Positions 33,169 to 54,394 of a DNA stretch of 64,000 bases are shown here, in pieces. How positions within the stretch are numbered: position 1 is the stretch's first letter; each line of letters starts with the position of its first letter. Source of the DNA: Candidatus Spongiisociaceae bacterium (lineage in GTDB: Bacteria > Actinomycetota > Acidimicrobiia > Spongiisociales > Spongiisociaceae); the NCBI GenBank assembly GCA_965202665.1, contig OZ241841.1:2400001-2464000 (forward strand), in the 5' to 3' direction. The position numbers and the translations under genes are program-made. The notes beneath the pieces were generated by a model that saw only the letters and a program-made list of their open reading frames with translations, was not told the DNA's origin and made no database searches.

Positions 33169-36100
33169 TTACCCCAGAGGGGCTGGGCGCCCGGCCTGCT
33201 GGTCGGCGGTTTGGCGGGTCTCGTTGATCGCTTTTTGCAGGGCCTTCACTATGCGGGAGCCTCTTCTGGCGAACCCCAGTTCTTTGATGGCTATGTCCAT
33301 CAGTTCCGAGTCGGTCAGCAACCGCCCGTCGGATTCGATCCAGCGGATCAGTTTGACCAGGGACTGGGGACTGTATTCCCCTATGGGATCGCCCGGAACT
33401 ACCGGGCAGGTGCCTTGGCGTTGCGGAACCCGGCCGTTCCTGTCCGGTTCGGGCGGCGGCTCAGCCGGTGGGGGAGTGGCGGGGTGGCTGGGCGCGTCCG
33501 TTTCCGCCGCGGCCCGTTTCCACGCCGTCACCGTTTTTTCTATTTCCTGTTCGCGGTGCAGAAACCAGTCGGTGGACCAGATGCGGTGGAACCGCCACCC
33601 GATGCGCTCCAAGTGTTCCTGCCGGAGGCGGTCGCGGTCGCGGGCCGTCCGGGAAGAATGGTACCGGGCCCCGTCCGCTTCTATGGCCAGCACCATCTGA
33701 CCGGGCCTTTCCGGGTGGGCGGCCGCAAAATCAATCCAGTATCCGGCGCTTCCGTACTGGGCGACCAGCGGGATGCCCGCTTGTTGCAACCCTTTTTGGA
33801 TGTCGCGTTCGAAGCCGTTGAGGGGGGTTTTGTTGGTGCGGGCGAAACCCAGTTTTTCGCCCCCCGTTTCGGCGTAGGCCAAGTACGCCCCCAGCATTCT
33901 GGCCCCTTCCGCTTTCAGTTTGTTCGGGTCCAGGTCGGCGGAGGTGAAAGACGAAACCACGGTCATGCGCCGCCGGGCCCGGGTCACCGCCACGTTCAGC
34001 CGCCGTTCCCCGCCTTCCACGTTCAAAGGCCCGAATCGGTGCACCATTCTTCCGTCCTGCCCCCGGCCGTAGCCGACGGAGAGGATGATGGAATCCCGTT
34101 CGTCTCCCTGCACCCGTTCAATGTTTTTGATGAACAGCGGCTCCGAATCCGACAGGCGCCGGGGACCGTGGTCTATCCAATGATCCAGTTCGGGATGATC
34201 CGCCCGTTCGTTCCGCAACAGTTCTTCCACCAGCCCGGCGTGTTTGACCCCCATGGTGATGACGCCCAGGCTTTCCTCCGGACGTTGACGGGCGTGTTCG
34301 AAAATCAGTTCCACCACCCGGGCCGCCTCCCGCACCTGTTTGCCGGTTCCGCCCGGGTCGTGGTCGGTCAGCACGTGGTTGACGCAGTCATCGTTGGCGG
34401 TTCCCGGAAAAGTGGTGAGAGAACCGTCGTAGAGGGTGGGTTGCGCGTTGGAGAAGGCGATCAGCCTTTCATTGCGGGAACGGTAATGCCAACTGAGGTT
34501 GCGGGTCCCGTGCGGAGGGGAAAGCAAAGTGGCCATCACATCCAGAATGGACTCAAACCCGCTGGTCAAAGAAGCGGGGTTTTCTTCGTCTTCGTCCTCT
34601 TCTTCGATGGACCCCATGAAAAAGCGGGTGGGCGGCAACTGTTTGGTGTCCCCGGTCACCACCACTTTCCCGGCTCGCAGGATAGGGCCGATGGCGTCGG
34701 GGGCGGTCACCTGCGAAGCCTCATCGAAGATCACCACGTCGAACAGCTGCTCCTGCGGCAAGGTTTCCGCCACCAGCAACGGGCTCATCGCCCAGCAGGG
34801 TTTGAGCGCCCGCAACACGTTGGGGGCCTCCTGCAACAGTCGGCGCACCGTCATATGCCCTCTTTTGAGAATGGCCTGTTTCCGCACCAAAAGGCTTTCT
34901 TCGTGATGGTCGTTGCGAGCGTCCCGGGACCATTTCGCCACCTGGCGGCGAACGCGATCTTTGCCTGATTCGATATGCTGCTGATCCACCCGCTTATATT
35001 GTTCAACCGTCCGGTTCAGCGCCTCCCCTGAAAAAGTCCTTATGGAACGGTCGTCCAATCGTATATGGTCGAGCAGGCTCTCATACCAAACGTAGCGGGC
35101 CAGATCCAGGGTTTCTTCCGTGTCCAACCGGCGGCGGGACGCTTCCACCAAAACCTCTTTCAGCCCCCGGGAGGAAAGATTCAAACCCAACTCTGTTATA
35201 TCCGCCAAATTCAATAATGTTTCCTGATGCTCCAGCAAAATCTCCACCCGCTCCTGGAGTTTCTCAAATGTCAGGTCCCCCAACTCCGGGTCGCCGGTTT
35301 GTTCTACGACCTGCTCCAGTTTTTCCAGAGTTGCGGAAATTTCTTTATCTTTAGCAGAGGCGGGCAAATTTTGGGGAAACGCCGATTCGCCGCCCGAATC
35401 GTATTGCCCCCAAGTAGTCAGATGTGAGACTATCTTGTCCACAATTTTATGCAACATTCTCCGAGAAGGCTTGGTGTTATGTTGCCACAGTTGTTTCACC
35501 TCTTTCATAGCCTGGCGGTATTTGCCGTTGAAAGTCAAAAACAAACTCGGTTTGCTTTCCGCTATGACATTCAGCAGTTCGCGATCCAACTCATAGGCGG
35601 CCCATTCAACATATTCACAAAGTTCCTCAATTTCCGTTATAAACCCCACCAGATCCTTCCATTCGGAGACGGTGTTTAGCATTCTGAAACCGAGCTTTTC
35701 CGCAAACTTTTGCCATTCTCTCAAAATCTGAACCAGCTGGCTGTCCAGAAAGCGCAACGATTCAAGGGAATCGGATATTTGGTCGCGAGCGGTGAGGTTT
35801 CCCGCCTGATACGCCAACGCCCAGGGACTGGCCGGCAGTTCGGTTTCCGGCAACAAGGCTAAACCTCCCAAATCGACATACTGCCTTACGTCGCGAAGGG
35901 CCTGCTTCCACTCATCTTCCGCCAGGGCCTGGAGACTATCATCTGTGAAACGGATGTGGGAAGGGACTACTTTGCCCCGAAGGGTAATCAAATTTTCTTC
36001 AATGTCGTAAAGAGTTTCGTCCCAGGGGTCCCTCTTTTTATGCACGGAAGCGGTGTGCTCATTCAAACTTCTGCGATGCTGGGACAAATTTTCTTGTACG

Positions 36101-37263
36101 GGTTGAACATCGGGTTCCTGCGAATTAGTGTATTTATCCAAGGTCATACGCAGATCATTGGCCACCCGGCGCTTCAAACTGCTGGCCCCCGTCTCATGCA
36201 AATCCAAAGCTATGTCCAAATCGTTGTCGCGCAGACGTTTCAGCACCGCATCAATGGCGGCCCGCTTCTCGGCGACGAACAGGACCGTTTTCCGGGAGGC
36301 CACCAGGGCCGCGATAAGGTTGGAGATAGTCTGCGACTTGCCCGTCCCGGGCGGGCCTTCCACCACCAAATCCCGCCCGGCCAGCACCGTGTTGATGACG
36401 CCGGACTGGGAAGCGTCCGCATCCAACACCAGAAACTCTTCGGAAGGGTGCACCATATCGGGATTGACCGGTTCAAAATTAGCGTGTTGCGTGCGGAGCC
36501 TGGATCGGGCTTCGGTATCGCCGGCGATGGCGGCCAGCAGATCGTGTTCGCCCAGCAAACCGTTTTCTTCGGCTTCTTGGATGTCTTTCACCATCGCCAA
36601 CTTCTGATAGGAAAAGTTTCCGACGACGGCCTTGCTCCGGTCGACCGAAAAATCCGGAATTTCGCCCCGGGCCTGGGCGGTGAGCCGGTCCGCCAAAGCC
36701 ATGCGCTCCCCGATGCTGGAAAACTCCCCGTTCCGACCGCCGTCGAAAAGAAACTCGAACTCCGTTTCCAAATGGTGATGCAAAGTGGGATTGACCTGCC
36801 ATTCCCCGCTGATTTGCAAATCGAAGTCTTTGGCGACCCCGCCCCTGGGCTTAAGCGACAGCGGAGTCAGGAGCAAAGGCGCCGCCGGAATGGAAGACGA
36901 CCCCGGTCCGGAAGTGCGCTGGTTCGTCCAAGTCGTCAAACCCCAGGCGAGGAACAGGGTCTGCACCCCGCGTTCCTCGTCGTTTTCCCGCGCTTTGGCG
37001 GCCACCGTCCGGGCCCGCCGCGCCGCATCTTCCAGCCGGTCGGGTTCGGGGAACAGGCGCGAAAGCCGGGTTTTGCGGCTGTTCGTCAACTCGGCCAGGG
37101 CGGTTTGGTCGGCGCCCCCGCCCGCCGACAGGTCCAGCGTGCCCCGGCTGAGATCCCGGTAGTAGAGGAGCGGGTTGCGCCCGCTGCGGTCCAGCAGGTC
37201 GCTGCTCCATTTCTCAGCCGCCTCGGAAATCAGGTGGGCCGTGATCGGGTTGGCTGTGCTCAT
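33169..37263 (-). CDS. DUF4011-type SF1 helicase with a C-terminal Vsr/MTES_1575-like nuclease (Hhe-like defence protein)
   Basis: W...LLD.S.RNPLL N-terminus; Walker A GPPGTGKSQT; FDEASQ; GDTKQLPP; HYRSRNE; ERVQGDERD; RLNVAVTRARR; C-terminal IDFA...AIEADG..YH...ARDRDRLRQEHLE.IGWRFHRIWSTDW. Start taken at MSTANP. Confidence 0.9.
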   Translation of the reverse strand: MSTANPITAHLISEAAEKWSSDLLDRSGRNPLLYYRDLSRGTLDLSAGGGADQTALAELTNSRKTRLSRLFPEPDRLEDAARRARTVAAKARENDEERGVQTLFLAWGLTTWTNQRTSGPGSSSIPAAPLLLTPLSLKPRGGVAKDFDLQISGEWQVNPTLHHHLETEFEFLFDGGRNGEFSSIGERMALADRLTAQARGEIPDFSVDRSKAVVGNFSYQKLAMVKDIQEAEENGLLGEHDLLAAIAGDTEARSRLRTQHANFEPVNPDMVHPSEEFLVLDADASQSGVINTVLAGRDLVVEGPPGTGKSQTISNLIAALVASRKTVLFVAEKRAAIDAVLKRLRDNDLDIALDLHETGASSLKRRVANDLRMTLDKYTNSQEPDVQPVQENLSQHRRSLNEHTASVHKKRDPWDETLYDIEENLITLRGKVVPSHIRFTDDSLQALAEDEWKQALRDVRQYVDLGGLALLPETELPASPWALAYQAGNLTARDQISDSLESLRFLDSQLVQILREWQKFAEKLGFRMLNTVSEWKDLVGFITEIEELCEYVEWAAYELDRELLNVIAESKPSLFLTFNGKYRQAMKEVKQLWQHNTKPSRRMLHKIVDKIVSHLTTWGQYDSGGESAFPQNLPASAKDKEISATLEKLEQVVEQTGDPELGDLTFEKLQERVEILLEHQETLLNLADITELGLNLSSRGLKEVLVEASRRRLDTEETLDLARYVWYESLLDHIRLDDRSIRTFSGEALNRTVEQYKRVDQQHIESGKDRVRRQVAKWSRDARNDHHEESLLVRKQAILKRGHMTVRRLLQEAPNVLRALKPCWAMSPLLVAETLPQEQLFDVVIFDEASQVTAPDAIGPILRAGKVVVTGDTKQLPPTRFFMGSIEEEDEDEENPASLTSGFESILDVMATLLSPPHGTRNLSWHYRSRNERLIAFSNAQPTLYDGSLTTFPGTANDDCVNHVLTDHDPGGTGKQVREAARVVELIFEHARQRPEESLGVITMGVKHAGLVEELLRNERADHPELDHWIDHGPRRLSDSEPLFIKNIERVQGDERDSIILSVGYGRGQDGRMVHRFGPLNVEGGERRLNVAVTRARRRMTVVSSFTSADLDPNKLKAEGARMLGAYLAYAETGGEKLGFARTNKTPLNGFERDIQKGLQQAGIPLVAQYGSAGYWIDFAAAHPERPGQMVLAIEADGARYHSSRTARDRDRLRQEHLERIGWRFHRIWSTDWFLHREQEIEKTVTAWKRAAAETDAPSHPATPPPAEPPPEPDRNGRVPQRQGTCPVVPGDPIGEYSPQSLVKLIRWIESDGRLLTDSELMDIAIKELGFARRGSRIVKALQKAINETRQTADQQAGRPAPLG

Positions 37264-37357
37264 GCTCCGAACTTTACCCAAAGGGTGTGACGGAAAACCG
37301 GGTCCCCCGGAGTGCGGGAGTGCGGGCGGCGCTTTCATCCGGCAACGGCCGCCGGTC

Positions 37358-37366
37358 TGCTACAAT
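37358..37366 (+). promoter_or_regulatory. Extended -10 (TGcTACAAT) for tRNA-Glu
   Basis: TACAAT at 37361-37366, 10 nt before the tRNA. Confidence 0.6.
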
Positions 37367-37376
37367 CGGCGGGCAC

Positions 37377-37449
37377 GGCCCCGTCGTCTAGTGGCCTAGG
37401 ACGCCGCCCTCTCAAGGCGGTAACGCCAGTTCGAATCTGGTCGGGGCTG
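37377..37449 (+). tRNA. tRNA-Glu(CTC)
   Basis: Acceptor GGCCCCG/CGGGGCT; anticodon arm CCGCC-CTCTCAA-GGCGG; T-arm GCCAG-TTCGAAT-CTGGT. Confidence 0.95.
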
Positions 37450-37499
37450 CCGGGGCCGGGGGCGGTCCGTTAACTCCGCCGGGCGGTTATTATCCGTCT

Positions 37500-38411
37500 A
37501 TGCCCAAAATCATTCCCTCCCAAGCCCTCCCCTATATGGCCGACGCGGTGGCGTCGGGCCGCATCGAAGGGGAGTTTTGCGACCTGTCCACGCTCATCCT
37601 GTACGAGTTGGGGCCGGTGCCCGGCATGAGGATCGTCAACGAAGGGGATTACCGGAGGGTTTCCAACATGTGGCGCGCCACGATGGAACTCCGCCGCCGC
37701 CCCGGCGCCCGCCTCGCCCTCGATTTCCACCGCCGCCTTTTTCGGGAGGCGATGGAGCCGGGCGCCGAATGGGAGGCGGGTATTTGGCGCACCGTCCGGG
37801 TTTACATCCACCGGGGATGGATTACCCACATGGACTTCGACGGGGAATGGCAGTTGAAACCGGACCTGTTGCATATGCCGCCCCCGGAGGAGGTGCCCGC
37901 CCTTATGGCGAAATGGGATCGGGAGATGAAACGGGACTGGGAAACCGAGGCCGCCTCGCCCGCCGAAGCGGTGCGCCGGGCCGGGAACGCCCACGCCCGC
38001 TTCGAACGCATACACCCTTTCCCCGACGGCAACGGGCGGGTGGGGCGCGCTTTGGCCGGCGCGCAGATGGGCTTTTGGGGAATCTCCGAAGTGCTGTGGG
38101 AGCGGCGGCCGGACTACTACGACTGCCTGGACGACCCGGTCCAAGCGGGGGTTTTCTTCGAAAAGGCCTGGTCGGAGGCGGAGTCCCGCCGGGCCGGCCG
38201 CAACCGGAACTTCGAGGGCCCTTTGGCCGTAGCCGGGACCCGTCCGGGCGGGCAATGGGAGCTCATCCATCCCCGCGCCGAAGGAATATGGGCGGCGCGG
38301 GAGTTGCTCGATGAATACGGCCCCTCCCTGGGGTGGGGCGACGAAGGCTGGGGGCGCGCCCGCGTTGAGGGCCAACCCTGGAACCCCGAATACGGCGCCG
38401 TCTGGGAATGA
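37500..38411 (+). CDS. Fic-family protein (class II-like, with N-terminal inhibitory motif)
   Basis: Canonical HPFPDGNGRVGR; N-terminal SGRIEG fits (S/T)xxxE(G/N). TATTAT at 37488-37493 is 6 nt before the ATG (leaderless). Confidence 0.88.
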   Translation: MPKIIPSQALPYMADAVASGRIEGEFCDLSTLILYELGPVPGMRIVNEGDYRRVSNMWRATMELRRRPGARLALDFHRRLFREAMEPGAEWEAGIWRTVRVYIHRGWITHMDFDGEWQLKPDLLHMPPPEEVPALMAKWDREMKRDWETEAASPAEAVRRAGNAHARFERIHPFPDGNGRVGRALAGAQMGFWGISEVLWERRPDYYDCLDDPVQAGVFFEKAWSEAESRRAGRNRNFEGPLAVAGTRPGGQWELIHPRAEGIWAARELLDEYGPSLGWGDEGWGRARVEGQPWNPEYGAVWE

Positions 38412-39496
38412 TCGCCGCGCCGGCGGGGGTGGACGAAACTCCGGTGTTGGCGGTGGACGAGGCGAAACTCCGCCGCAACATCGGGCGGATGGCTTCGGCG
38501 ATGAAAACGGCGGGGCGGGCCTTGCGTCCCCATTTCAAAACTTCCAAAATGATCCGGGTGGCCCGGATGCAGGCGGAGGCGGGGGCGGCCGGGTTCTGTT
38601 GCGCCACCGTCGCCGAATTGGATGCCCTGATCAACGCCGGTTTCACCGACCTGCTGTGGGCGCATCAGCCGGTGGGCCCCGCCAAAGTGCGGGCCGCCGT
38701 CGACCTCAACCGGCGGGCCCGGGTGATGGTCGCCTTGGATTCCGCGGAGGCCGCCGCCCCTCTCAGCCAAGCGGCCGTCGCCGCCGCCCTATCCGTCCCT
38801 TTTCTGCTGGAAGTGGACACCGGCCTGGGGCGGGCGGGGGTGCTGCCGGAGGAAGCGCCCGCCGCGGCCCGCCGTCTGGCCGGCCTGCCCGGGTTGGAAC
38901 CGGCGGGGGTGATGACCCACGAAGGCCATGTGTCCGCCCACGGCTCCGACCGCCCCGCCTTGGAAGAAGCGGGCCTGCGGGCGGGGCGGGCCCTGGCCGA
39001 AGCGGCGGACAACCTGCGGGCCGCCGGAGTAAAAGCCGACATCGTGTCGGTGGGTTCCACTCCCGCCGCCTCTTCTTCCCCGTTCGCCGACGGGGTGACC
39101 GAAGCCCGGCCCGGAACCTACGTTTTCCACGACGCCAACCAGGTGTTTTACGGGAGCGCCGACTGGGAGGACTGCGCCCTTACGGTGGTCGCCCGCGTCG
39201 TTTCCCGTCCCCGCCCGGGTGCGGCCGTCATCGACGCCGGTCGGAAAGCGATGAGTTCCGACCCTCCCCATGCCGGACGCGGATTCGGGACTTTGCCCGG
39301 CCGGGATGTCATCTTCGAACGGGCCTACGAGGAACACGGCGTCCTCGCCGGCCCCGGGGCCGACCGCCTGCGGGTGGGGGATCTGGTTTCCATCATCCCC
39401 AACCACGCCTGCCAAACCGTCAACATGTGGTCCGGGGCCGCCGTCGCCCGGGACGGCGCCGTAGCCGACCGCTGGGACATCGTCGCCCGCTACTGA
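38408..39496 (+). CDS. PLP-dependent fold-type III enzyme, D-threonine aldolase / D-serine dehydratase (DSD1) family
   Basis: RPHFKTSK (PLP Lys), EVDTGLGRAG, EARPGTYVFHD, EEHG, PNHAC; ATGA overlap with the fic stop. Confidence 0.88.
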   Translation: MIAAPAGVDETPVLAVDEAKLRRNIGRMASAMKTAGRALRPHFKTSKMIRVARMQAEAGAAGFCCATVAELDALINAGFTDLLWAHQPVGPAKVRAAVDLNRRARVMVALDSAEAAAPLSQAAVAAALSVPFLLEVDTGLGRAGVLPEEAPAAARRLAGLPGLEPAGVMTHEGHVSAHGSDRPALEEAGLRAGRALAEAADNLRAAGVKADIVSVGSTPAASSSPFADGVTEARPGTYVFHDANQVFYGSADWEDCALTVVARVVSRPRPGAAVIDAGRKAMSSDPPHAGRGFGTLPGRDVIFERAYEEHGVLAGPGADRLRVGDLVSIIPNHACQTVNMWSGAAVARDGAVADRWDIVARY

Positions 39497-39498
39497 TG

Positions 39499-42312
39499 TC
39501 AGGCGTGGGCGTCTATCAGACGGGGGAGGGAATCATCGGGGGTCATCACTTCGAAAGCCCAACGGCCGAAGCCGCCGTGGGCGTTCACCGCTTCTATCCA
39601 ATCCCGCATGTACGCCCATTTGGAGTCGTCCAACTCTTTCGGTTCGCCTTTCACTTCCAACACCAGGGTGGTTCCGTTTGTCAGCCGGATCAGAAAATCG
39701 GGTAGGTAGCGGCGCACCACCCCCCGGTGCGCATAGGACACCTCAAACCCCAGATGGTCGTTTTTGACCCACGCCTCCACCGCCGGATTCCCGTCCAATT
39801 CGGGGGGTACCACCGGTTCGAAAGTCCCGTCGTAAACGCAGAAGTTGATGTGGCTGCGCCGGGCGGGCCCCACCGCTTTCCCGGTGTACCACACCCTCAT
39901 ATCCCCGGTGGAGCGGATGGGCTTTTCCGGGTCGAACACCGGCGTCAAACTTTCCGTGTTGGAAGACTCGATCGCCTCCCAGAAATGTTGCACGATGCGG
40001 GTCATGTTCATCCCGATCAGTATCCGCCGCCGCAACGGATTCTGGTTCCACAGCCCGTTGATGACGATCCGGTCCGACTCCAGAAACTTTAAGGTGAGGG
40101 CCACCAGCCGGGCGCACAAAGTTGCCCGGGCGCCCGGCCAGTCGGGGGCCATCTGGTCGAAGATTTCCGCCGCCGACCCGAAGGCCAGCTCCTGCAAGCG
40201 CCGCTCGCCCCAGAACTTTTCCAAGTCGATGCGCACATCCGCTTCGTCCGTTTTCCCTTCCACGGTTACCGCCAAATCAGCCATAGTGGGCGTGTTGCGC
40301 GGGTCCAGTTCCAGCGGTTTCACCTTCTCCCAGTCCAAAGAAAGGCCGGTGCGGTACGCCCGTTCCACCCGTATCACCACCGGGAATTTGATTTCAAACC
40401 GGGCTTTTTCCGGCAAAGGGCCGATAGGGGTTTTCGGCTTCGGCGGCTTCGGCGGCCCGCTCTGCGACTCGTGGGGCAGAAACGTGAACGGCACCCCGAA
40501 AATATTCACGTATTCCGGTTCGAAAAACCCGTGTTCGTTCACTTCGTAGGAGGTGCGGCGCAACCCCCGGCCCACCACCTGTTCGCACAACAACTGGCTG
40601 GTAAAAGCCCGCAACCCCATAATGTGGGTGACGGTTTTGGCGTCCCACCCTTCCGACAGCATGGCCACCGAAATCACATGCCGTATCCGCTCGCCCGGAT
40701 GCCCCTGCCGCCCGATGGTGTCCACCTGCCGCCGCAAGAGTTCGGCCCGTTGCTTTGCGTTCAGTTCCCCCGGCCCGTCTTCCGCCTCTTCCGCGCCCAG
40801 TTCGGCGACCGGGGTTTCGCTTTCTTCCGCCTTTTTGAGAGTGTTGGAGTCGATATGCAAAGTCAGTTGCGGGTCGCATAGTTCCGGAACCGGTATCCGC
40901 CCCCGGTCGAAGGCGTGTTTGACGCGGGCCGCCGTTTCAGTGCGGTTGGCGACGGTGATCATCACCGGCGGCGTCGGATGCTTCAACTCCTCCCAGGCGC
41001 GCCGGGCGGCCGCCCAGTCGGATCCGAGCAGGGTGTAGCCCGCCACCACCAGGTCGGGCAGCGGAGCTTCCGCTTTCGCCCGCCGGTTCAGGTCGGCTTT
41101 CACATCCTCATCGTTGTAAATGTGATACAGCCGGGATTTGAAAGTTTCCGGATCGTATTGCGTGTCGTCCCGCACTACCACCCGCGGCGTTTTCACCAAC
41201 CCCGATTCGATGGCGTCGTTCAGGCTGAAGTCGCTGACAATCCACCCGAACAGGGCTTCTTCGCTGGCTTTCTTACCGGAGGGGACGAAAGGGGTGGCGG
41301 TGAAGTCGTAACAGCGCAGGATGCCCCGCGCCCGATGCAGGCGGTCCAGCGCCTCCACCCATTTGGTGGCTTCCTCCAGGTCTTTTTTGAAAAACTCGTT
41401 TGCTAAGCGGCCGGGGGGTATGCGCCAGGCGTGATGGGCTTCGTCGTTGATGACCAGCAGATTGCGGGAGCGGGACATTTCGTCCCCCAGCGCTTCCCGC
41501 ACCCAAGCCTCATCGCTTTTCGCCCCCCGTTTGTCCACCGACCGCCTCCTTTTAATCTGCTCTTCGGTCTGCCAGCCCAAAGCGTGCCAGTTGCGCACCC
41601 GCACCCGCCCCTGCCGCAGGCGGTCCCGCAGGTTGGAGGGAACCAGGTCGAACTCGTCGAAGTAGTTGTCCGCATTTTGGGGGTCGATAACCGACAGTCG
41701 GCTGCGCACCGTCAGTCCGGGGGCCACCACCAGCACGTTGCGTGAGAAGCGGGGGTCGTTGGGATGGGTCACCTTGTTGAGAATCTGCCAGGCGATGACC
41801 ATCCCCATCACCACCGTTTTTCCGGCACCGGTGGCCATTTTGCAACATTCCCGAACGAACCCGCCCCCGTCGCCGGGAACATCGATTCCGGTGCGCTCCG
41901 AGTGGGGGGCTTCTATCAGCCACATCAGGGTTTCGATGGCTTCCAACTGGCAGAAGAACAGGCGCTTGTCATCGACTCCCCGGTTGCGCCAATGTTCCAA
42001 CAGGCGCCGGGTGACGCCGGTGGCCCCCGGATAGCCGGCCCGCCGCCAAGCAGCCACCCGCGGGCGGATGCGGTTGACCAGTTCTATCGGATGGAAGACG
42101 CCCGGGTCGTCGAAGGCCTGGGAGTCGGGGGTGGCCACCAAATATCCGGCTTCGCGGCGCCCTTCCACGTATTCGAATTCCCGCCCCGCCCGGTTGTAGC
42201 GCCAGTGGCTGGAAGGTTCGTTGTAAGGGGAGTTGACGATTAACCGGTCGATGCCGCCGGTGTGGGACAGGCCCCGTTGCGCCCCCTCGGTCGGCGGGCC
42301 TTTTTTGGCCAT
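39499..42312 (-). CDS. res: Type III restriction enzyme Res subunit (BPTD_3080-like)
   Basis: KMATGAGKT, INDEAHH, MLSEGWD, EQVVGRGLRR helicase motifs; C-terminal YLPDFLI...LEVKG PD-(D/E)xK nuclease; start overlaps the mod stop (TGATG). Confidence 0.92.
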   Translation of the reverse strand: MAKKGPPTEGAQRGLSHTGGIDRLIVNSPYNEPSSHWRYNRAGREFEYVEGRREAGYLVATPDSQAFDDPGVFHPIELVNRIRPRVAAWRRAGYPGATGVTRRLLEHWRNRGVDDKRLFFCQLEAIETLMWLIEAPHSERTGIDVPGDGGGFVRECCKMATGAGKTVVMGMVIAWQILNKVTHPNDPRFSRNVLVVAPGLTVRSRLSVIDPQNADNYFDEFDLVPSNLRDRLRQGRVRVRNWHALGWQTEEQIKRRRSVDKRGAKSDEAWVREALGDEMSRSRNLLVINDEAHHAWRIPPGRLANEFFKKDLEEATKWVEALDRLHRARGILRCYDFTATPFVPSGKKASEEALFGWIVSDFSLNDAIESGLVKTPRVVVRDDTQYDPETFKSRLYHIYNDEDVKADLNRRAKAEAPLPDLVVAGYTLLGSDWAAARRAWEELKHPTPPVMITVANRTETAARVKHAFDRGRIPVPELCDPQLTLHIDSNTLKKAEESETPVAELGAEEAEDGPGELNAKQRAELLRRQVDTIGRQGHPGERIRHVISVAMLSEGWDAKTVTHIMGLRAFTSQLLCEQVVGRGLRRTSYEVNEHGFFEPEYVNIFGVPFTFLPHESQSGPPKPPKPKTPIGPLPEKARFEIKFPVVIRVERAYRTGLSLDWEKVKPLELDPRNTPTMADLAVTVEGKTDEADVRIDLEKFWGERRLQELAFGSAAEIFDQMAPDWPGARATLCARLVALTLKFLESDRIVINGLWNQNPLRRRILIGMNMTRIVQHFWEAIESSNTESLTPVFDPEKPIRSTGDMRVWYTGKAVGPARRSHINFCVYDGTFEPVVPPELDGNPAVEAWVKNDHLGFEVSYAHRGVVRRYLPDFLIRLTNGTTLVLEVKGEPKELDDSKWAYMRDWIEAVNAHGGFGRWAFEVMTPDDSLPRLIDAHA

Positions 42313-44890
42313 CAGCCGGCTCGGTCGTCCAAACTGAGCAAACGCAGGCTTTCCACCCCCCGGTCGTCCACCACTTTCACCGCGACCCGCCGATGTTCGC
42401 CCGCCGGAAACGGCAACGAAACCGTGCCCCGGTAGGCCTCAATGCGGGACTGGTCTATTTGCGCCCGCAAGGTTTTAGCCAGCCTGTTCCACCCCCCGTT
42501 TTTCTTAGTTCCGTCCAGAGGGAAAAACACTTGGCGGGGAAATAGGCTGCGCCCGTCGTAGTCGGGATCCAGCATCCACACCGCGATCTTGTCCGCCCCC
42601 CCGGAGGTAACCTGCCCGGTGCGGGTATCGAAGTAGTCAAACCCCAGCACTTCCACCAGAAACTGCCCGTCGTCGGTGCGTTCCAGATGCACATCAGGCT
42701 GGCCGACCAACCAAAAACTCTCGTTGCCCGAACGGGCCTTCTTCAGGTCTGAGGTGAGCAGGTCGGCGTTCATCTGCGCCCGCAGCAAGGTAACGCCCGG
42801 CCAGTTGGTTTCCTCAATGTCTTTGGCCGCTTCCGGGTCAAACATGAAAGCGGCGAAAACCAACAGTTCCGGTTTGTGCGCCAAGGTGCGGGCATCTTCG
42901 ATAGCCCGTTCCACCTGCCGAGTTTCCAGGGGAGAATGCTCCGGCCCAAACGAAACCGCCAACCGAGACCCGTCATCGGTTTCACCTTCGGCATGCAAGG
43001 CGGGAAGAGGCAAAGGTTCCAGCCGGATCAGTTCGATACGATTCCCACCCGTTCCCCGCAACCCGGTCTTCAGCAGTTCATCCCGCCATTCAACCTGCCG
43101 TACGGATTCTCTACTTCGCGAAACTGATGCATCAGATGGGGGGGGGGGGTAGCGATTCCAGCGGATCTGCCAATGGCAGTACAGCAGGAGCAGGAACCGC
43201 CTCCATCGTGAAAGGACCGGTAACCCTTGTTTTACCGGTGTCTTTCAAAGGTTGGTCATATAGGGTTGTAACTTGAGGTGGTTCATCATAGGCTAGAATT
43301 CTCGCCGAAACTTTAGGCACCGTTTTGTAGACGAACCCACTCCCTACCCCCTCATCTGGTTGAGCTAACTTATAGTAATCAAAAACGGATGTCATAAGTC
43401 GCTGGCGAGCCAGAGTGAGTGCCACTCGGCTAGTGTCGCAAGTAATCCAACGCCGTCCCCATTGTTCCGCTACTACCGCAACAGTGCCACTCCCACAAGT
43501 GGGGTCTAACACTAAATCACCAGGGTCTGTAGTCATTAATATGCACCGTGTTATTACACTACGGGCTGTCTCTACTATATATTGTTTATTGTGAGCTGCC
43601 ATAGGGGTGTTCCAGAAATTATTGATTCTCCGTCCTGGTACTTCGTCCTCATAATACTTATACCTAAGGTTATCTGAGGTGTCTAAAGAATGGAGTCGTC
43701 CTAATTCTGCTAAGTGATCTAGGCCTTTTTTAGATACACTCCACTGGCTATTGGATCGACAATGGTACATCTTACCGTTCCATTCATAGGGTTCGGAACG
43801 GCCAGTTGTTGACCAGCCTTGAGAAGTTAAACTTACGCGTTGAAAAATTCTTGCATCTTTAGGTAAAATATCAGGATCAAACCTCTCCTCGTTAGTTAAT
43901 TTACGAATTGCACCATCTGCTAACTCAAGAAAGACATAAGAGCTAAAAAACTCAATTATTTCCTTTCGATTAATAAGTTGTTCAAATAGATGATGATATT
44001 TTACTAAAGATCTATCTTTCGTATACCACAGTAGATAGTTTGCTACATCTGGTAAAGTATTGCCAGAGCTCCCTCCTGAAGTTGCATAGCTTATAATAGT
44101 AACGCGGTTTTCAGCTCCAAATATTTCATCCATCAGTAATCCAACTCGTAATATATTTTCATCGCCTATTTGTACGAAACAACTGCCTGATGGAGTGAGT
44201 AGTTCGCGGGAGAGCAATAATCTATCTCGCAAATAAGACAGATAGGAGTGGATTCCCATTTCCCAAGTATCTCGGAAAGCTTTAATCATTTCCGGTTCGG
44301 TAGTTAGGTGTTCCCCCTTGCCATCTTTTACTTGGTTCTGATTGACGAAGGGCTGGAAGTTGGAGCCGTATTTGATGCCGTAGGGGGGGTCGATGTAGAT
44401 CATCTGGACTTGACCGCCCAAGGATTCTTTTTCCAGGAGACTGTTCATCACCAGCAGGCTGTCTCCCGCAACGAGGCGGTTGCTCCAGTTGTGGGGGTGC
44501 CGGTAGAACTCGATGGCTTTGCGCAGGGGAGGATTTTCCTCCTCTGTCTCAAACAGGGACTCCTGCCCCTCCGGGTGTCCGTTGCGCTTGCGCACCGCCT
44601 CCATGATGGTGCGGGGATCGATCCGCTCGTGGACATGCAGGGAGACGGTAGGGACGGCGAACGATGCCCCCTCCGCCTTGCCCGCCCAGTTCAGTCGGGG
44701 GTCGATATGCGGGTCATGATCCGCCGGGTGGTTATAGGGGGGGGGGGGGTGGCTTCGGGTGCTCGTAGGTTTGGGCGGGCAGGTCGGGATCGCCCTCCGC
44801 CGTCACCAAGCCCGCGGGCGGGTTGTTGGTGCGCTCCTTGTCGGAATGCGTATAGCTCTTGATGGGCTTGGTCGTCTTGGGCTTGGCCAT
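42312..44890 (-). CDS. mod: Type III adenine methyltransferase Mod, split into three frames by two poly-C tracts (phase-variable or frameshifted)
   Basis: Frame 1 MAKPKT...HPKPPPP; frame 2 DPRLNWAGK...VPTVSLHVHERIDP...DPPY...DPTCGSGT...GPFTMEAVP; frame 3 SDASVSR...EWRDELLKTG...VAVKVVDDRGVES. Removing one C from each tract gives a single 858-aa ORF. Confidence 0.9.
43138..43149 (-). repeat. C12 homopolymer in mod (G12 on +); in frame at 11 or 14
   Basis: Coding strand CTA-C12-ATC-TGA; the conserved continuation requires CTA-Cn-A-TCT. Confidence 0.9.
44737..44749 (-). repeat. C13 homopolymer in mod (G13 on +); in frame at 12 or 15
   Basis: Coding strand CCA-C13-TA-TAA; the conserved continuation is TAT AAC CAC...GAC CCC CGA CTG AAC TGG. 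Confidence 0.9.
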
Positions 44891-45011
44891 AGGTTGCAAA
44901 CAGTACACCTGAAAGCCTGCTCTCGTAGCCAATTTGACAGATTTCTTTAAATATCGTAGAATATGGGAATAATCTACTCAACCAAGTAGTTATACTCTAC
45001 ACAAATAAAAA

Positions 45012-45033
45012 TGTCACACCCCCCTCCTAAGGT
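45012..45033 (+). promoter_or_regulatory. RecA-NDp/PafBC-like DNA-damage promoter (TGTCAC-N10-TAAGGT)
   Basis: Spacing matches the actinobacterial TGTCGG-N10-TAnnnT motif; ATG at 45041 is 7 nt downstream. Confidence 0.6.
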
Positions 45034-45040
45034 AAACACC

Positions 45041-46315
45041 ATGCAACACCACAACCACAAACCAACCGATACGCTGGAACGGGACTGCCAGCGGGCACTG
45101 GCCTCGCTGGACGCCCTGGGCGGGCGCCTGCGTAACGGGCCCGGCCAGGCGGAGTTGGACCGGTTGGCGGATACGTTGCGGCGGGCGGAGGCCAAGGTCG
45201 CTTCCCTGAAATGCGACCTGGCCGCCCAGGTGACCCGGATGTCGGGGGAGGCCGCTACTCGGGACGCGTTGCGGGATCAGTTGGGGATGACCAACCATCA
45301 GGCCAAGCACTTGACGCGGGTGGCGGACACTTTGCGGGAGATGCCCAACACCCGGGCCAAACTGCAGGCGGGGGAGATCACTTTGGAAAACGCTACGGCC
45401 CTGACCGCGGCGGCGGGGGAGGTGGGAGCTGCGCAGGTGGATAAGAACCGGGGTTTGCTGGAAGACGCCGCGCAAGCTAATCCGGATCATTTCCGCAAAC
45501 AGGCTAAGCAGTGGGCCAACGCCCGTTCCGCTGACCGGGGTGAGAAACTGTTGGAGCGGCAGCGGCGGATGCGGCATGTGAAGCTGTTCACCGAACCCGG
45601 CACCGGCATGGGCATTTTGCATGCCGAGTTGGACCCCATCCGCTTCGGACAGATACGGCAAGCCCTGGACCTCCACGCCGAAAAGCTACGGCGGGCCGAC
45701 TCCGGCGGGGACATCCACCCCGATGATATTCGCACCCATATGCAACGACGGGCTGACGCCCTAGTGGAACTGTTGACCGGCCGCGACGCCGACACCCTGC
45801 ATCCTCTTTCCGACAACAAGTCGGGTAATGTTACTCAGTTGGTGGTGGTAGCCGACTTGGGCCTGTTGGACGGAACCCGCCCCGACGGCGACTGCGAAAT
45901 CCTGGGAACCGGACCAGTACCGCCGTCCGTTCTGGAAACCCTCACCCCCGACACCAACATATGCGGAATCATCTTCGGAGGCAAAGGCCGGACGCTGTGG
46001 CTGGGACGCAACAAAAGACTGGGCAACGACGCGCAACGGCTGGCGGCCGCGGTACGGGATCGGGGATGCGTCCGCTGCGACCTTCCCACCCACTCCAACC
46101 AGCTACACCATATAAAGGACTGGTACGACGGGGGACCCACCGACATCGACAACCTGGCCTCGCTCTGCGGAACCCACCACCGGGAACTCCAAAAACACAA
46201 CCTAAAATTGGAAAAAATTGGAAAAAACTGGCAAACCCGCCCCCGAACCGGGCCGCCTCTCCCTCCGCCGCCTCGGTCAACCCGGCCGCCCACCCGAGCC
46301 GGCCCCAGCCCATAG
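45041..46315 (+). CDS. DUF222/13E12-like protein with a C-terminal HNH endonuclease
   Basis: Helical N-terminus (LQAGEITLENA; QRRADALVEL), LWLGRNKRL...QRLAAAVRDRGCVRC...LHHIKDW.DGGPTDIDNLASLCGTHHR. Start chosen from the promoter position. Confidence 0.88.
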   Translation: MQHHNHKPTDTLERDCQRALASLDALGGRLRNGPGQAELDRLADTLRRAEAKVASLKCDLAAQVTRMSGEAATRDALRDQLGMTNHQAKHLTRVADTLREMPNTRAKLQAGEITLENATALTAAAGEVGAAQVDKNRGLLEDAAQANPDHFRKQAKQWANARSADRGEKLLERQRRMRHVKLFTEPGTGMGILHAELDPIRFGQIRQALDLHAEKLRRADSGGDIHPDDIRTHMQRRADALVELLTGRDADTLHPLSDNKSGNVTQLVVVADLGLLDGTRPDGDCEILGTGPVPPSVLETLTPDTNICGIIFGGKGRTLWLGRNKRLGNDAQRLAAAVRDRGCVRCDLPTHSNQLHHIKDWYDGGPTDIDNLASLCGTHHRELQKHNLKLEKIGKNWQTRPRTGPPLPPPPRSTRPPTRAGPSP

Positions 46316-46681: not shown

Positions 46682-46950
46682 CGGGACGGCCATGTCGCTC
46701 ATTACAAACCCGGAACATACCCGGAACAGATTTGACGGGTGATCCCTCCGCCATTGGCCCCATGCTCGGCGTGGATGACCCCGACCCTTCCGCTCTCAGC
46801 GCGGAGCGCGGAACGCAACGGGCCGCGCCGCGTTCCCGGTTCGGTCCGCCCGATGGGGTAAATCAACCCCAAGAGGCCGCGGAGCAACCGGAATACGGGG
46901 GGGGGGGGGATAATTCCCGGTGGCCCCGCTGACCGGGCGAGCCAAACCCG

Positions 46951-47077
46951 GAACGCGAAAAATATCTCTAACGACCCCCTTGAATTTTCAACAAAAAACT
47001 CGTATGTTATGGGCGGGAGGGCGGGGGGCGGGTGGGCCCCCCGAATTTTAAAAATTTTTGAGAACGCGAAAAGTTTT
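46951..47077 (+). repeat. Intergenic direct repeat, copy 1 (core only)
   Basis: gaacgcgaaaaatatctctaac...ttgaattttcaacaaaaaactcgtatgttatgggcgggagggcggggggcgggtggg...gagaacgcgaaa. Confidence 0.9.
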
Positions 47078-47169
47078 CTTATTCGGCGGGGCGTGCATCA
47101 CCAAAATTTGGGCAAGGGAGGTGCGGTTCGGGCGCTGGCCGCCTCCTCATTCTACGCGGGAAAATCCAA

Positions 47170-48142
47170 CTGAAGGCCTCCTGGTGTTATGGGGAGTGAA
47201 TGAACCCTATAGCACGGGAGGAGGTCTTCGGGATGCATGGTAACGCGAGGTCATCGCCTTTGGGACGTTTGGGGATGGTGTTGCGGGTGCTAGAAGAAGG
47301 AGAGCCGGTGGCGCGGGTGGCTCGGCGGGGTGGGCATGTCTCGGCAGTGCGTGTCCAAGTGGGTGCGTCGCTACCGGGAGGAAGGCCGAGCCGGTTTGGA
47401 GGACCGGTCGTCGCGGCCGCGTTGTTCCCCCATGCGCACCAGCCCGGCGGTGGAAGAACAGGTGTTGCGGGCGGGGCCGGGCCGGTTGTCGGTGTTTACG
47501 GGGTGCCGGAGCGGACGATCAGCCGTATCCTGCGCCGTCATGGGATGTTGCGTCTGTGGGAATGCGACCTGTTGATCGGCGAGCCACTCAAACCCCCTCC
47601 CAGGCCGGTGGTGCGGCATGAACGGGGCAGGCCGGGGGAGTTGTTCCATACCTCCCGGCGGGGGATGGAGGATACATGGCCGGGGAAACGCTCCGGGGGG
47701 ATGGACCTTTGTGCACTCTGTCGTGGACGACTGCACCCGCCTCGCCTACTCCGAACCGTTGCCGTACGAGGAAGGAACCACCGTCGCCGCGTTCACCGAC
47801 CGCGCCTTGCACACCTTCCGCCAACTGGGCATCACCGACATCACCGACATCACCGACATTGTGGAGATCATGACCGACAACCATTGGAGATACACCCGCA
47901 GCCGCCTATTCGCCGTCCTGCTCGCTCAGCACGACATCCGTCATATCACGATCAAAACCCTATATACCCAGCAGAACGGCAAAGTGAACGATACAGCCAA
48001 ACCCTCAAACCAAAATGGGTCAACTCCCAACCCTGGCCGGATAACCAAACCCGAAACCAAGCCCTCAACCACTGGCTCCACTACAGCATCGGAGGCAAAA
48101 CCACCAATCTCCAGACCGTAACCAACCTACCGGCCATGTACA
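47170..48142 (+). mobile_element. Degenerate IS481-family element (frameshifted transposase from ATG 47233)
   Basis: Leader hairpin gaaggcctcc...ggaggtcttc; MHGNARSSPLGR; SRQCVSKWVRRYREEGRAGLEDRSSRP; VHSVVDDCTRLAYSE; IMTDN; QQNGKV; right end ...VTNLPAMY ending in ACA at 48142. Motifs fall in several frames. Confidence 0.85.
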
Positions 48143-48243
48143 TCTAATCCGCGCCCGGGCCAGCCTGTAGACCCAAACGCCCCAGCGGGCACCGCCGAGC
48201 CCACGGCGCCAGCCTGTTCTCAAACATCCGCCTGCTTTGTCAG

Positions 48244-48454
48244 AACAACCGGCTCCTTCTCCGTTCCGCCGGCTTGCTCCCAGCGGGCGCTCTCCCCCCG
48301 GACGATCCGGGACTTCGTTCCCGATGTTGTTTCCAAAAACCTAGAACGCGAAAAAAATCTCTAACGCCCCCCTTGAATTTCCAACAAAAACCCCGTATGT
48401 TATGGGCGGGAGGGCGGGGGGCGGGTGGGTACCCCAAAAATTTTAAATTTTTTT
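48244..48454 (+). repeat. Intergenic direct repeat, copy 2 (3' end cut by the ISL3 terminus)
   Basis: About 210 bp, near-identical to 49414-49625; lacks the final gagaacgcgaaa. Confidence 0.92.
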
Positions 48455-49410
48455 GGCTCCTCGGGTTTTTTTGGTGGGGGCGGGGGTTTAGTTGGTGTTG
48501 TGGGTTAGGTTAGTAAGATGCCTCGGTGGGCGTAGTTTTGGGGGTTGGAGGGGCTGTGGGCGGTGCGTTTGAGTTTTTGGAGGAGTTGTTGGCGGCTTCT
48601 ATGGGTCCGTTGATTCGTCGTCCGATGGTGTGTAGGAGTTAGGCGAGGATTTCGTTGGACCAGCGGAGGATGGCGGTAACGGGTTTTGCGGTATTGGGGA
48701 ATTAGGCCCGTTTGGCAGAGGTCGGTGAACCGGTCCAGGGCCCCGGTAGGAGATTTCCAAGTTGGGGGCCTGGAAGATTTGGTGTAGTTGTAGGGCTTGC
48801 CAGCCGGTTTCCAGAGCCGTTCCCGTTCGGAGGGGGTGAGACGGTCTTGGCGGGAGCGGTGCAGGCTGGGTTCCCAGGCCGAGGGACGGCCCTGGGATCG
48901 CGGCGGAGTTGGATCAGCGACGTTCCGAACCAGCGGATGACGTGGAAGCGGTCCGGCACGTGTTGCGCCCGGGGCAGGTACTGGTCGATGGCGGTCTTGT
49001 AAGGGGCGGCCCCTTCGGTTGCTACTACCTCCACGCCCCTTCTCCAGGCGGGGCCTTGATCCCGGAAGAACCTGGCCAACCGGGGAGCATACCCAACGTC
49101 TGGTTGGCCTCCCCGTCCGCTACCACCGTCACATACTTGTGGCCCCGGCGGAGGGAAGTCTCATCCACCAGCAACACTCGACACGCCCGTCCCCGCCACC
49201 GGGCCCCCTCCCGCTCCGCCGTCGCTTTTACCAAACCCATGATGACGCTCCAACTCACCCCCGCCCTGTCGGCTTCCCCTCAAACTCGGCATGCCCCTCC
49301 ACATGCGCGCCACCGCACCCCCCGCACTCAAACTGCCGCCGCCCCCAAATCAGCACCGTCTCCCGCTCCCGGGTCGGGAGATCCCGCACCCGCCGGCAAC
49401 CCCCTCTCCA
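48455..49410 (-). mobile_element. Degenerate ISL3-family element
   Basis: VRDLP...VLIWGRRQFECGGCG; VDETSLRRGHKYVTVVAD; VEVVATE.A.PYK.AI...LP.A.HV.DRFHVI. The right terminus GGCTCCTCG (encoding the terminal EEP) is at 48455 beside an AT-rich target. Multiple frameshifts; left end not found. Confidence 0.85.
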
Positions 49411-54365: not shown

Positions 54366-54394
54366 TTGACATATTGGGGGGGGGGGGTTAGGGT
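54366..54394 (+). promoter_or_regulatory. Sigma-70-type promoter TTGACA-N17-TAGGGT with a G12 tract in the spacer
   Basis: TTGACA 54366-54371; G12 54376-54387; TAGGGT 54389-54394; about 90 nt upstream of giant gene 2. Confidence 0.75.

Follow-up and report, generated by a model that had tools for sequence, protein, structure and literature searches.

Can a methyltransferase gene that is put out of frame twice by homopolymer tracts be a working switch, and might such a switch have more than two positions? The question is raised by a 64,000-nucleotide stretch of DNA from Candidatus Spongiisociaceae bacterium (contig OZ241841.1, positions 2,400,001 to 2,464,000; referred to below as the window, with position 1 as its first letter), which lies within a single 2.77-Mb contig and carries, on its minus strand, a mod-res gene pair whose mod gene contains two poly-C tracts. 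We regard it as highly probable that the two tracts form a real slippage switch. The best explanation that we can offer, to which we assign an even chance, is a two-tract Type III switch whose middle form is predicted to methylate without docking the restriction subunit, Res. The host is likely a sponge-symbiont actinobacterium (its habitat is inferred from the family name).

The mod gene (minus strand, as are all of its parts) starts at 44890 and stops at 42314-42312. Codons 1-47, encoding an N-terminal arm (44750..44890), match the N-termini of the intact alleles P0003 and P0004. Directly after codon 47 lies tract 1 (44737..44749), which is C13 on the coding strand and out of frame (C12 or C15 would be in frame); it is an early on/off switch within a poly-Pro insertion that is absent from more distant homologues, and its site is shared with the related loci L021, L023-L026 and L071. 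The open frame between the tracts (43150..44736) encodes a beta-class amino-methyltransferase (MTase) with its target-recognition domain (TRD; PF01555, 4.4e-29; PADLOC MTase_III PDLC03632, 1.5e-118). It contains catalytic motif IV, DPPY (44380..44391, at about residue 167), the variable target-recognition region (approximately 43537..44016, residues 292-451 or so, delimited by identity to P0003 in blocks of 40 aa) and the S-adenosylmethionine-binding motif I, DPTCGSG (43486..43506, at about residue 462); an AT-rich stretch (43450-44260, 40% GC) encloses the variable region. Tract 2 (43138..43149) begins at codon 581, in the linker between the MTase and the C-terminal domain (CTD), and is C12, again out of frame (C11 or C14 would keep the frame). 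The remaining 274 aa form a C-terminal region (42312..43137; PDLC03632 positions 734-980, 6.5e-24) whose stop overlaps the start of res, and the one PADLOC Type III methylase profile covers both pieces of the gene.

We varied the length of each tract from -2 to +2 bases (25 combinations) and obtained the full frame only with -1 or +2 at both tracts, the -1/-1 combination giving a protein of 858 aa. A Mod of 585 or 605 aa results when only tract 1 is in frame (585 aa with C12), and translation ends after 52-66 residues whenever tract 1 is out of frame. A reading made from the sequence only had described a C13 after about codon 47 and a C12 after the catalytic and target-recognition region, each one base over an in-frame length, in an otherwise intact mod whose corrected frame of 858 aa overlaps an intact res as TGATG; the frame arithmetic confirms this description. 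We rejected a restart relay (a short-form stop overlapping an ATG, a 20-aa peptide, then a TTG at 43061), because its ATG arises from conserved linker codons and is absent in L021. A scan of 42200-45200 found no sigma-70-like site on the mod strand upstream of 44890.

The neighboring res gene (39499..42312, minus strand) is unbroken and encodes 937 aa with a Walker A motif (GAGKT, 162), a DEAH box (290) and a nuclease motif (PD 871 ... EVK 886); its ATG (42312-42310) overlaps the mod stop. Its product matches the NCBIfam BPTD_3080-family restriction endonuclease, NF046055, at 1054.9 bits (cut-off 800), and also PF04851. A res with superfamily 2 helicase motifs and a C-terminal PD-(D/E)xK nuclease, encoded beside mod, is as found in Type III systems, and the motif order in Mod (DPPY, then TRD, then motif I) fits a beta-class Type III Mod. 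Judged by profiles, motif order and the mod-res overlap, we assign the locus to the Type III restriction-modification operons of EcoP15I type, a type otherwise known by its Mod2Res1 complex, methylation of one strand at an asymmetric site and ATP-dependent cutting.

To ask how the two tracts behave among relatives, we compared allele states in the 120 best protein matches (protein records show frames, not tract DNA). The closest of these have a poly-Pro stretch at one site or at both; at around 70% identity, most matches have it at neither. Within one 90% cluster, P0003 and P0277 are full length (with three and four linker prolines, respectively), P0276 (602 aa) is frameshifted at tract 2, and P0275 (492 aa) shares both its internal start and its end with the window's middle frame. 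Within a second 90% cluster, P0002, P0272 and P0273 are full length, P0270 and P0274 (759 aa) are without the N-terminus, and P0271 is frameshifted at tract 2. Tract 1 is on and tract 2 off in P0005, P0008, P0009 and P0010. In the tract DNA itself, another species of the genus (L021; L038 has the same tracts, and the pair is counted once) has C11 in frame at tract 1 and C13 out of frame at tract 2, L023-L026 have tract 1 only, out of frame in four of four, and an Acidimicrobiales locus at 61% identity (L071) has C13 and C10, both in frame. All four combinations of in-frame and out-of-frame tracts are present across the alleles, the related loci and the sequencing-run contigs considered below, which bears out the earlier proposal that both tracts are real, frame-variable simple sequence repeats (SSRs).

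Identity between the window's Mod and P0003, taken in 40-aa blocks, is 45-72% for the TRD, 82-100% for the blocks on either side and 97-100% across the CTD. From this pattern we conclude that alleles exchange the TRD while the rest of the protein stays constant, as happens in phase-variable mod genes already described. The gene thus shows what is used to recognize a phase-variable mod: a mononucleotide tract of at least 9 bases within the reading frame (the PMC5909438 criterion), a frame that differs between alleles, and several TRD alleles.

What tract 2 removes was assessed from an AlphaFold2 model of P0003 (predicted local distance difference test score [pLDDT] 86.6, predicted template modelling score [pTM] 0.89), in which the longer of two segments with pLDDT <50 is the linker at residues 584-595, at or just after tract 2. 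The top Foldseek match of the model is EcoP15I Mod (PDB 4zcf; E 1.4e-19), and residues 31-571 superpose on 4zcf_B 3-516, that is, on its N-terminal domain (NTD), MTase and TRD (Z 26.2, root mean square deviation [rmsd] 8.4, 352 residues aligned). The beta-class methylases RsrI, MboIIA and BceJIV, which are CTD-less, match the same core at Z 23-24. Beyond the linker, residues 594-712 or so are predicted to adopt a restriction-endonuclease-like fold (2vld_B, Z 9.2, rmsd 2.5, 102 aligned; 1y88_A, Z 8.5), in which the column expected for (D/E)xK reads mostly S-F-G, and on this model the fold is likely inactive as a nuclease; residues 730-857, approximately, show a weak beta-sandwich resemblance (Z 5.4-5.8). 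Searches of Pfam and NCBIfam found no family for the C-terminal region. A single-sequence model of this region had a pLDDT of 41.6 and was not used, and a complex prediction between P0003 590-856 and Res 15-735 scored 0.00 twice, with controls not folded, and carries no weight either way.

The resemblance to the EcoP15I Mod2Res1 complex lies in the mod-res operon and in the superposed NTD, MTase and TRD, whereas sequence identity is approximately 14-20%, the C-terminal region is 274 aa rather than 106 aa and does not align to the EcoP15I CTD, and EcoP15I is not described as phase-variable in the text available to us (PMC4490356). The EcoP15I Mod dimerizes through its NTD and MTase, with one CTD contacting Res and the other exposed (PMC4490356). 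The geometry that the sequence-only reading had assumed for the product with tract 1 on and tract 2 off is correct, in that tract 2 is placed shortly behind the segment superposable on EcoP15I 3-516. By analogy, the short Mod would keep the dimerizing and methylating parts and lose both Res docking and the coupled start of res.

The mechanism that we propose is as follows. Replication slippage would reversibly alter the length of each tract, aided by a NucS-only repair that leaves indels in place. With tract 1 out of frame, translation would stop after 52-66 residues and the system would be off; with tract 2 out of frame, the C-terminal region and translational coupling to res would be lost and the NTD, catalytic domain and TRD kept. 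Restriction would likely require both tracts to be in frame, and the earlier suggestion of such an AND gate gains support from the frame arithmetic and the four allele combinations. Whether the middle state (tract 1 on, tract 2 off) is enzymatically active is, on the analogy with EcoP15I, a question on which we are evenly divided. If it is, the population would mix cells that are off, cells that likely only methylate, and cells that restrict and methylate. Such a mixture would be a bet-hedge serving phage defence and DNA uptake, and its middle state could shield the chromosome ahead of any cutting.

Repeats at the position of tract 2 are not confined to the poly-C of this genus. In this linker a Rhodothermales locus has C14 (L043; absent in its three closest relatives, L040-L042), two Bacteroidota loci have G13 and C8 (L045 and L046, respectively), an alphaproteobacterium has C12 (L092), the paralog L022 has G16 and L027 has a 7-mer repeated 24 times, and in all six of these loci the linker repeat is the only tract found. 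G/C tracts of at least 9 bases inside mod occur in 8 of the 76 GTDB loci versus 0 of the 79 JGI metagenome loci. A quick tree, built from residues 60-300 alone of 103 rows without joined frames, distributes the linker-repeat loci over different clades, and we infer, chiefly from the differing repeat units and flanks, that the linker repeat arose repeatedly.

Three mod paralogs of one Bacteroidota bin (L044, L045 and L046) have an unbroken methylase part and are all frameshifted at this linker, which holds no long run, G13 and C8, respectively; they would fit either retained methylate-only genes or three off switches. L161-L163 show frame differences near residue 445-550, with no repeat there.

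The strongest competitor to this explanation, to which we give somewhat under an even chance, is that both tracts are plain off switches and that the CTD-less Mod is unstable, inactive or dependent on Res for methylation. Two tracts would then serve to lower the on fraction (about 1 in 9, as against 1 in 3 with one tract, if lengths are evenly distributed) and to hasten switching off, and tract 2 would recur since a Pro-rich, disordered linker tolerates repeats. A number of observations weigh on this side, against an active middle form. The paralog L037 (G000:C1:40051-42612) has two tracts (at 42301 and 42568; G13 and G14, both in frame) that lie before DPPY, forming an early, redundant pair, and two tracts can accordingly be merely redundant. 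A separate clade of mod genes (L028-L032 and L036, in family genomes G015, G008, G012, G016, G023 and G018) carries repeats just after the motif-I helix, with units that differ between genomes: in L028, L029, L031 and L032 (out of frame) and L036 (in frame) these are 5-mer or 11-mer repeats at about residue 505, within the modelled MTase domain (in L030 the repeat spans a gap). Cutting inside that domain, they are most likely plain off switches, so that late tracts can be such, and the linker may simply tolerate repeats. That the linker tract is the sole one found in the six loci named above also suits an off switch. The C-terminal region is highly conserved (97-100% identical between P0003 or P0004 and the window), and the pTM of 0.89 suggests that it packs on the rest of Mod in the model. 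Among 155 loci we found no stably CTD-less mod, frameshifted or contig-cut ones aside; several of the ten shorter representatives checked as natural CTD-less Mods end in apparent frameshift tails or cut contigs. Res-dependent Mods exist, two of six N4-methylcytosine Type III Mods having failed to methylate without Res (PMC8259958). Finally, the protein records lack tract DNA, individual records may contain assembly errors, and switching inside one population was not seen in the run contigs, which drop minor variants.

Against plain off switches stand the position of tract 2 after the whole of the part equivalent to EcoP15I NTD-MTase-TRD, the match of the CTD-less RsrI, MboIIA and BceJIV to that same core, and the selection of protein ends by late tracts elsewhere in the genome (in hsdS and in three Type ISP genes).

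A much less probable alternative is that the middle state is active with altered specificity or efficiency, or that slippage during expression gives mixed dimers of full and short Mod that tune restriction. It draws on precedents: frameshift-mediated changes of specificity are reported in Type IIG enzymes (PMC3936762) and in HsdS (PMC6789123), a 2026 preprint reports that the off states of a Mycoplasma mod fragment are leaky (10.64898/2026.04.01.715767), and, in EcoP15I, one Res-contacting CTD suffices per Mod2 dimer (PMC4490356). It is opposed by the constancy of the C-terminal region across TRD alleles and by the model of that region, which is nuclease-like plus beta-sandwich and not a second TRD. 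By the same two features the region does not look like an extra TRD, although the list of fold matches, in itself, excludes nothing.

The precedents supply the closest known designs. In the Helicobacter pylori Type IIG genes JHP1272 (Hpy99XIV) and HP1353-1354 (HpyAXVI), two homopolymer tracts give three states; tract 1 is an on/off switch, and tract 2 adds or removes a C-terminal domain with a change of specificity shown by single-molecule real-time sequencing (PMC3936762). The arrangement is alike in having tract 1 upstream of the catalytic domain and tract 2 before the C-terminal domain, and unlike in that the H. pylori enzymes are single-chain Type IIG rather than a Type III Mod with a separate res, and in that the domain switched there alters specificity whereas the part switched here is predicted, by analogy, to dock Res. 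In the NgoAV hsdS gene of Neisseria gonorrhoeae, an early frameshift inactivates and a later poly-G frameshift truncates without inactivating (PMC6789123); this too combines an early inactivating frameshift with a later truncating tract, but the gene encodes a specificity subunit, the half-HsdS changes the recognition site, and the early change is a T insertion and not a long tract.

The frame states were then set beside assembled contigs from 4 of the 14 listed sequencing runs (X10-X13; contigs drop minor variants). In X10, one 2888-base contig at depth 133 spans the gene without substitutions and with one gap, having C13 at tract 1 and C11 at tract 2. X12 (depth 49, same sample as X10) has C11 at tract 2, its contig stopping within tract 1; X11 (depth 3) has C13 at tract 1 and C11 at tract 2, the latter with just 17 bases on one side. 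X13 yields a contig of depth 2 whose tract 1 reads C11, along with a relative at depth 481 that has a different TRD and whose contig skips the window's variable region. The majority state in X10 is tract 1 off and tract 2 on, and the C12 of the window at tract 2 represents a minor allele or else a slip in the consensus (X10-X12 may include the window's own source, and the platform of these runs is not on record). The disagreement between C12 and C11, and the end of the X12 contig in tract 1, are hints of within-population switching, which contigs would hide. The sequence-only reading had proposed that reads uniformly showing C12 and C11 would mark both extra bases as consensus errors; the deep contigs do show C11 at tract 2, and tract 1 reads C13, not C12.

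Long homopolymers are in excess across the genome. Its G/C runs number 96 at length 8, 1 at length 9, 0 at length 10 and 75 at length 11 and above, versus 0.5 expected for the last class by geometric extrapolation. Taking methylase-domain loci from family searches, which replaced a strict motif scan that found only 5 methylase frames, 13 of 26 have a tract inside the frame or up to about 300 bases ahead of it, where chance predicts 1.5 (at most 8 in 5000 random placements); 24 G/C tracts lie between a TTGACA and a TAGCGT-like box. The two richest genera (5 genomes) have 44-81 long G/C tracts per genome versus 0-7 in 16 genomes of other families, and fragmented assemblies of the family also carry them (40 in G022, 22 in G010 and 16 in G011). 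MutS and MutL were not found in the genome (94% complete), and NucS was; NucS leaves indels unrepaired in Mycobacterium smegmatis (PMC7015689).

That the gene is simply intact (C12/C11) or dead, the extra bases being homopolymer consensus errors, is the least probable of the alternatives and is largely refuted as to the existence of the tracts (it may hold for the one extra base of tract 2): each tract is indeed one base over an in-frame length, and the C12 of the window is unsupported by X10 and X12, but a contig of depth 133, which over 2888 bases differs from the window only at tract 2, reads C13 at tract 1, the shortfall of runs of 9-10 (about 18 by ratio) is too small to account for the 75 long ones, the tracts cluster at methylase genes and in promoter spacers, fragmented assemblies of the family carry them, and non-homopolymer repeats occupy the same gene in relatives.

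Phase-variable mod genes are common (SSR-switched genes make up 17.4% of 3805 Type III mods; PMC5909438) and are currently treated as binary. The mod gene described here is a member of this class, sharing an SSR of at least 9 bases that varies in length between alleles, conserved flanks around a variable central TRD, and DPPY before motif I; it would operate in the manner of the H. pylori two-switch genes but is not one itself. It is unlike the known members in having two tracts, the second after a complete methylase part, and in its intact BPTD_3080-type res and likely sponge-symbiont actinobacterial host. The available text of the PMC5909438 survey names no two-tract mod, and its supplementary lists (662 genes) may hold some. 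Among the papers listed by searches of the open-access literature, none describes a Type III mod that has two tracts, is truncated at the CTD or carries a tract in the methylase-CTD linker, and none reports phase variation for Spongiisociaceae or other sponge symbionts; two-switch restriction-modification genes with an active middle form are already known from the H. pylori Type IIG genes and NgoAV HsdS. Two-tract restriction-modification genes are frequent in the present genome, and some of them are plainly redundant, which was out of reach of the sequence-only reading.

If the three-state reading is true, a tract that sheds only the Res-docking part separates methylation from restriction inside one gene, and offers a testable answer to how a Type III system that is off, with its nuclease intact, restarts without cutting its own chromosome. 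Pathogen-style contingency loci would also be extended to an uncultured, likely sponge-symbiotic actinobacterial family, and 'frameshifted' methylase genes in long-read genomes would not necessarily be errors. A wider form of the reading, which we hold more tentatively, is that of a three-state Type III system in which a linker repeat gained several times across phyla uncouples restriction from methylation, as part of a genome-wide, multi-state slippage code; the code would include a two-tract hsdS and Type ISP genes that choose among up to six C-terminal specificity modules.

The hsdS gene in question (L195, Type I, G000:C1:1870400-1871400) has one C run close to the start (C11) and another between its two Methylase_S domains (C12), the second of these runs out of frame, and resembles the NgoAV design of an on/off tract plus a half-HsdS. 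The Type ISP genes form an array of three in tandem (L193, G000:C1:1215300-1232872, minus strand), in which the match to Type_ISP_C stops at about position 150 of 342 and the genes end in two or three poly-G tracts interleaved with look-alike modules of approximately 40 residues, each ending in a stop. In a frame simulation, tract A yields no module, module 1 or read-through, tract B yields module 2, module 3 or read-through, and tract C yields module 4, 5 or 6, giving up to six alternative C-termini plus a null. For two of the genes the rest of Type_ISP_C lies separately downstream (1221114-1220530 and 1227502-1226930), and each gene also has an earlier tract. From its sequence the array looks like a nested frameshift selector of specificity; no report of poly-G switching of Type ISP enzymes was among the papers listed by a search of the open-access literature, and the selector is possibly more novel than the two-tract mod.

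Tracts occur in further genes of the same genome (G000). Tract-bearing methylase genes lie at 598959, 2263994, 2758626 and 141220; they comprise a mod whose C16 is out of frame, two others with C11 or C12 near the start, and an hsdM that has C13 in frame together with a separate frame break near 140970. The promoter-spacer sites (window 54366-54393 and 23 others) consist of TTGACA, 4-5 bases, G11-13 and the TAGCGT-like box, with a spacer of 15-17; 22 of the 24 are followed by frames of 1180-4559 aa, most of which begin like a signal peptide; of the other two, one is followed by a methylase-like frame (C1:846205), and the other has no long frame listed. We read these promoter-spacer tracts, from their arrangement, as phase variation of surface-protein families.

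The neighborhood of the operon is in part of defence type. Downstream, 33169-39496 of the window holds a gene for a 1389-aa DUF4011/AAA/MTES_1575 helicase-nuclease (PADLOC PDC-S37, 1.5e-279; the ProA and Hhe models fall below cut-off), and this interval together with 45011-46315 also holds a Fic-domain gene and an alanine-racemase/D-serine-dehydratase-like gene. Because res is intact and such neighbors are of defence type, switchable defence is a simpler role for the locus than control of a regulon (a phasevarion). Upstream of mod lies a DUF222-HNH gene, of which a near copy stands behind the Type ISP gene at C1:1196600. A G13 run (window 46897-46909) lies outside any recognized gene, just before a repeated element, and the deep relative in X13 is 8 bases shorter here; frameshifted transposase-like remnants (window 47200-48147) lie between two copies of an element of about 100 bases (46950-47080 and 48340-48460).

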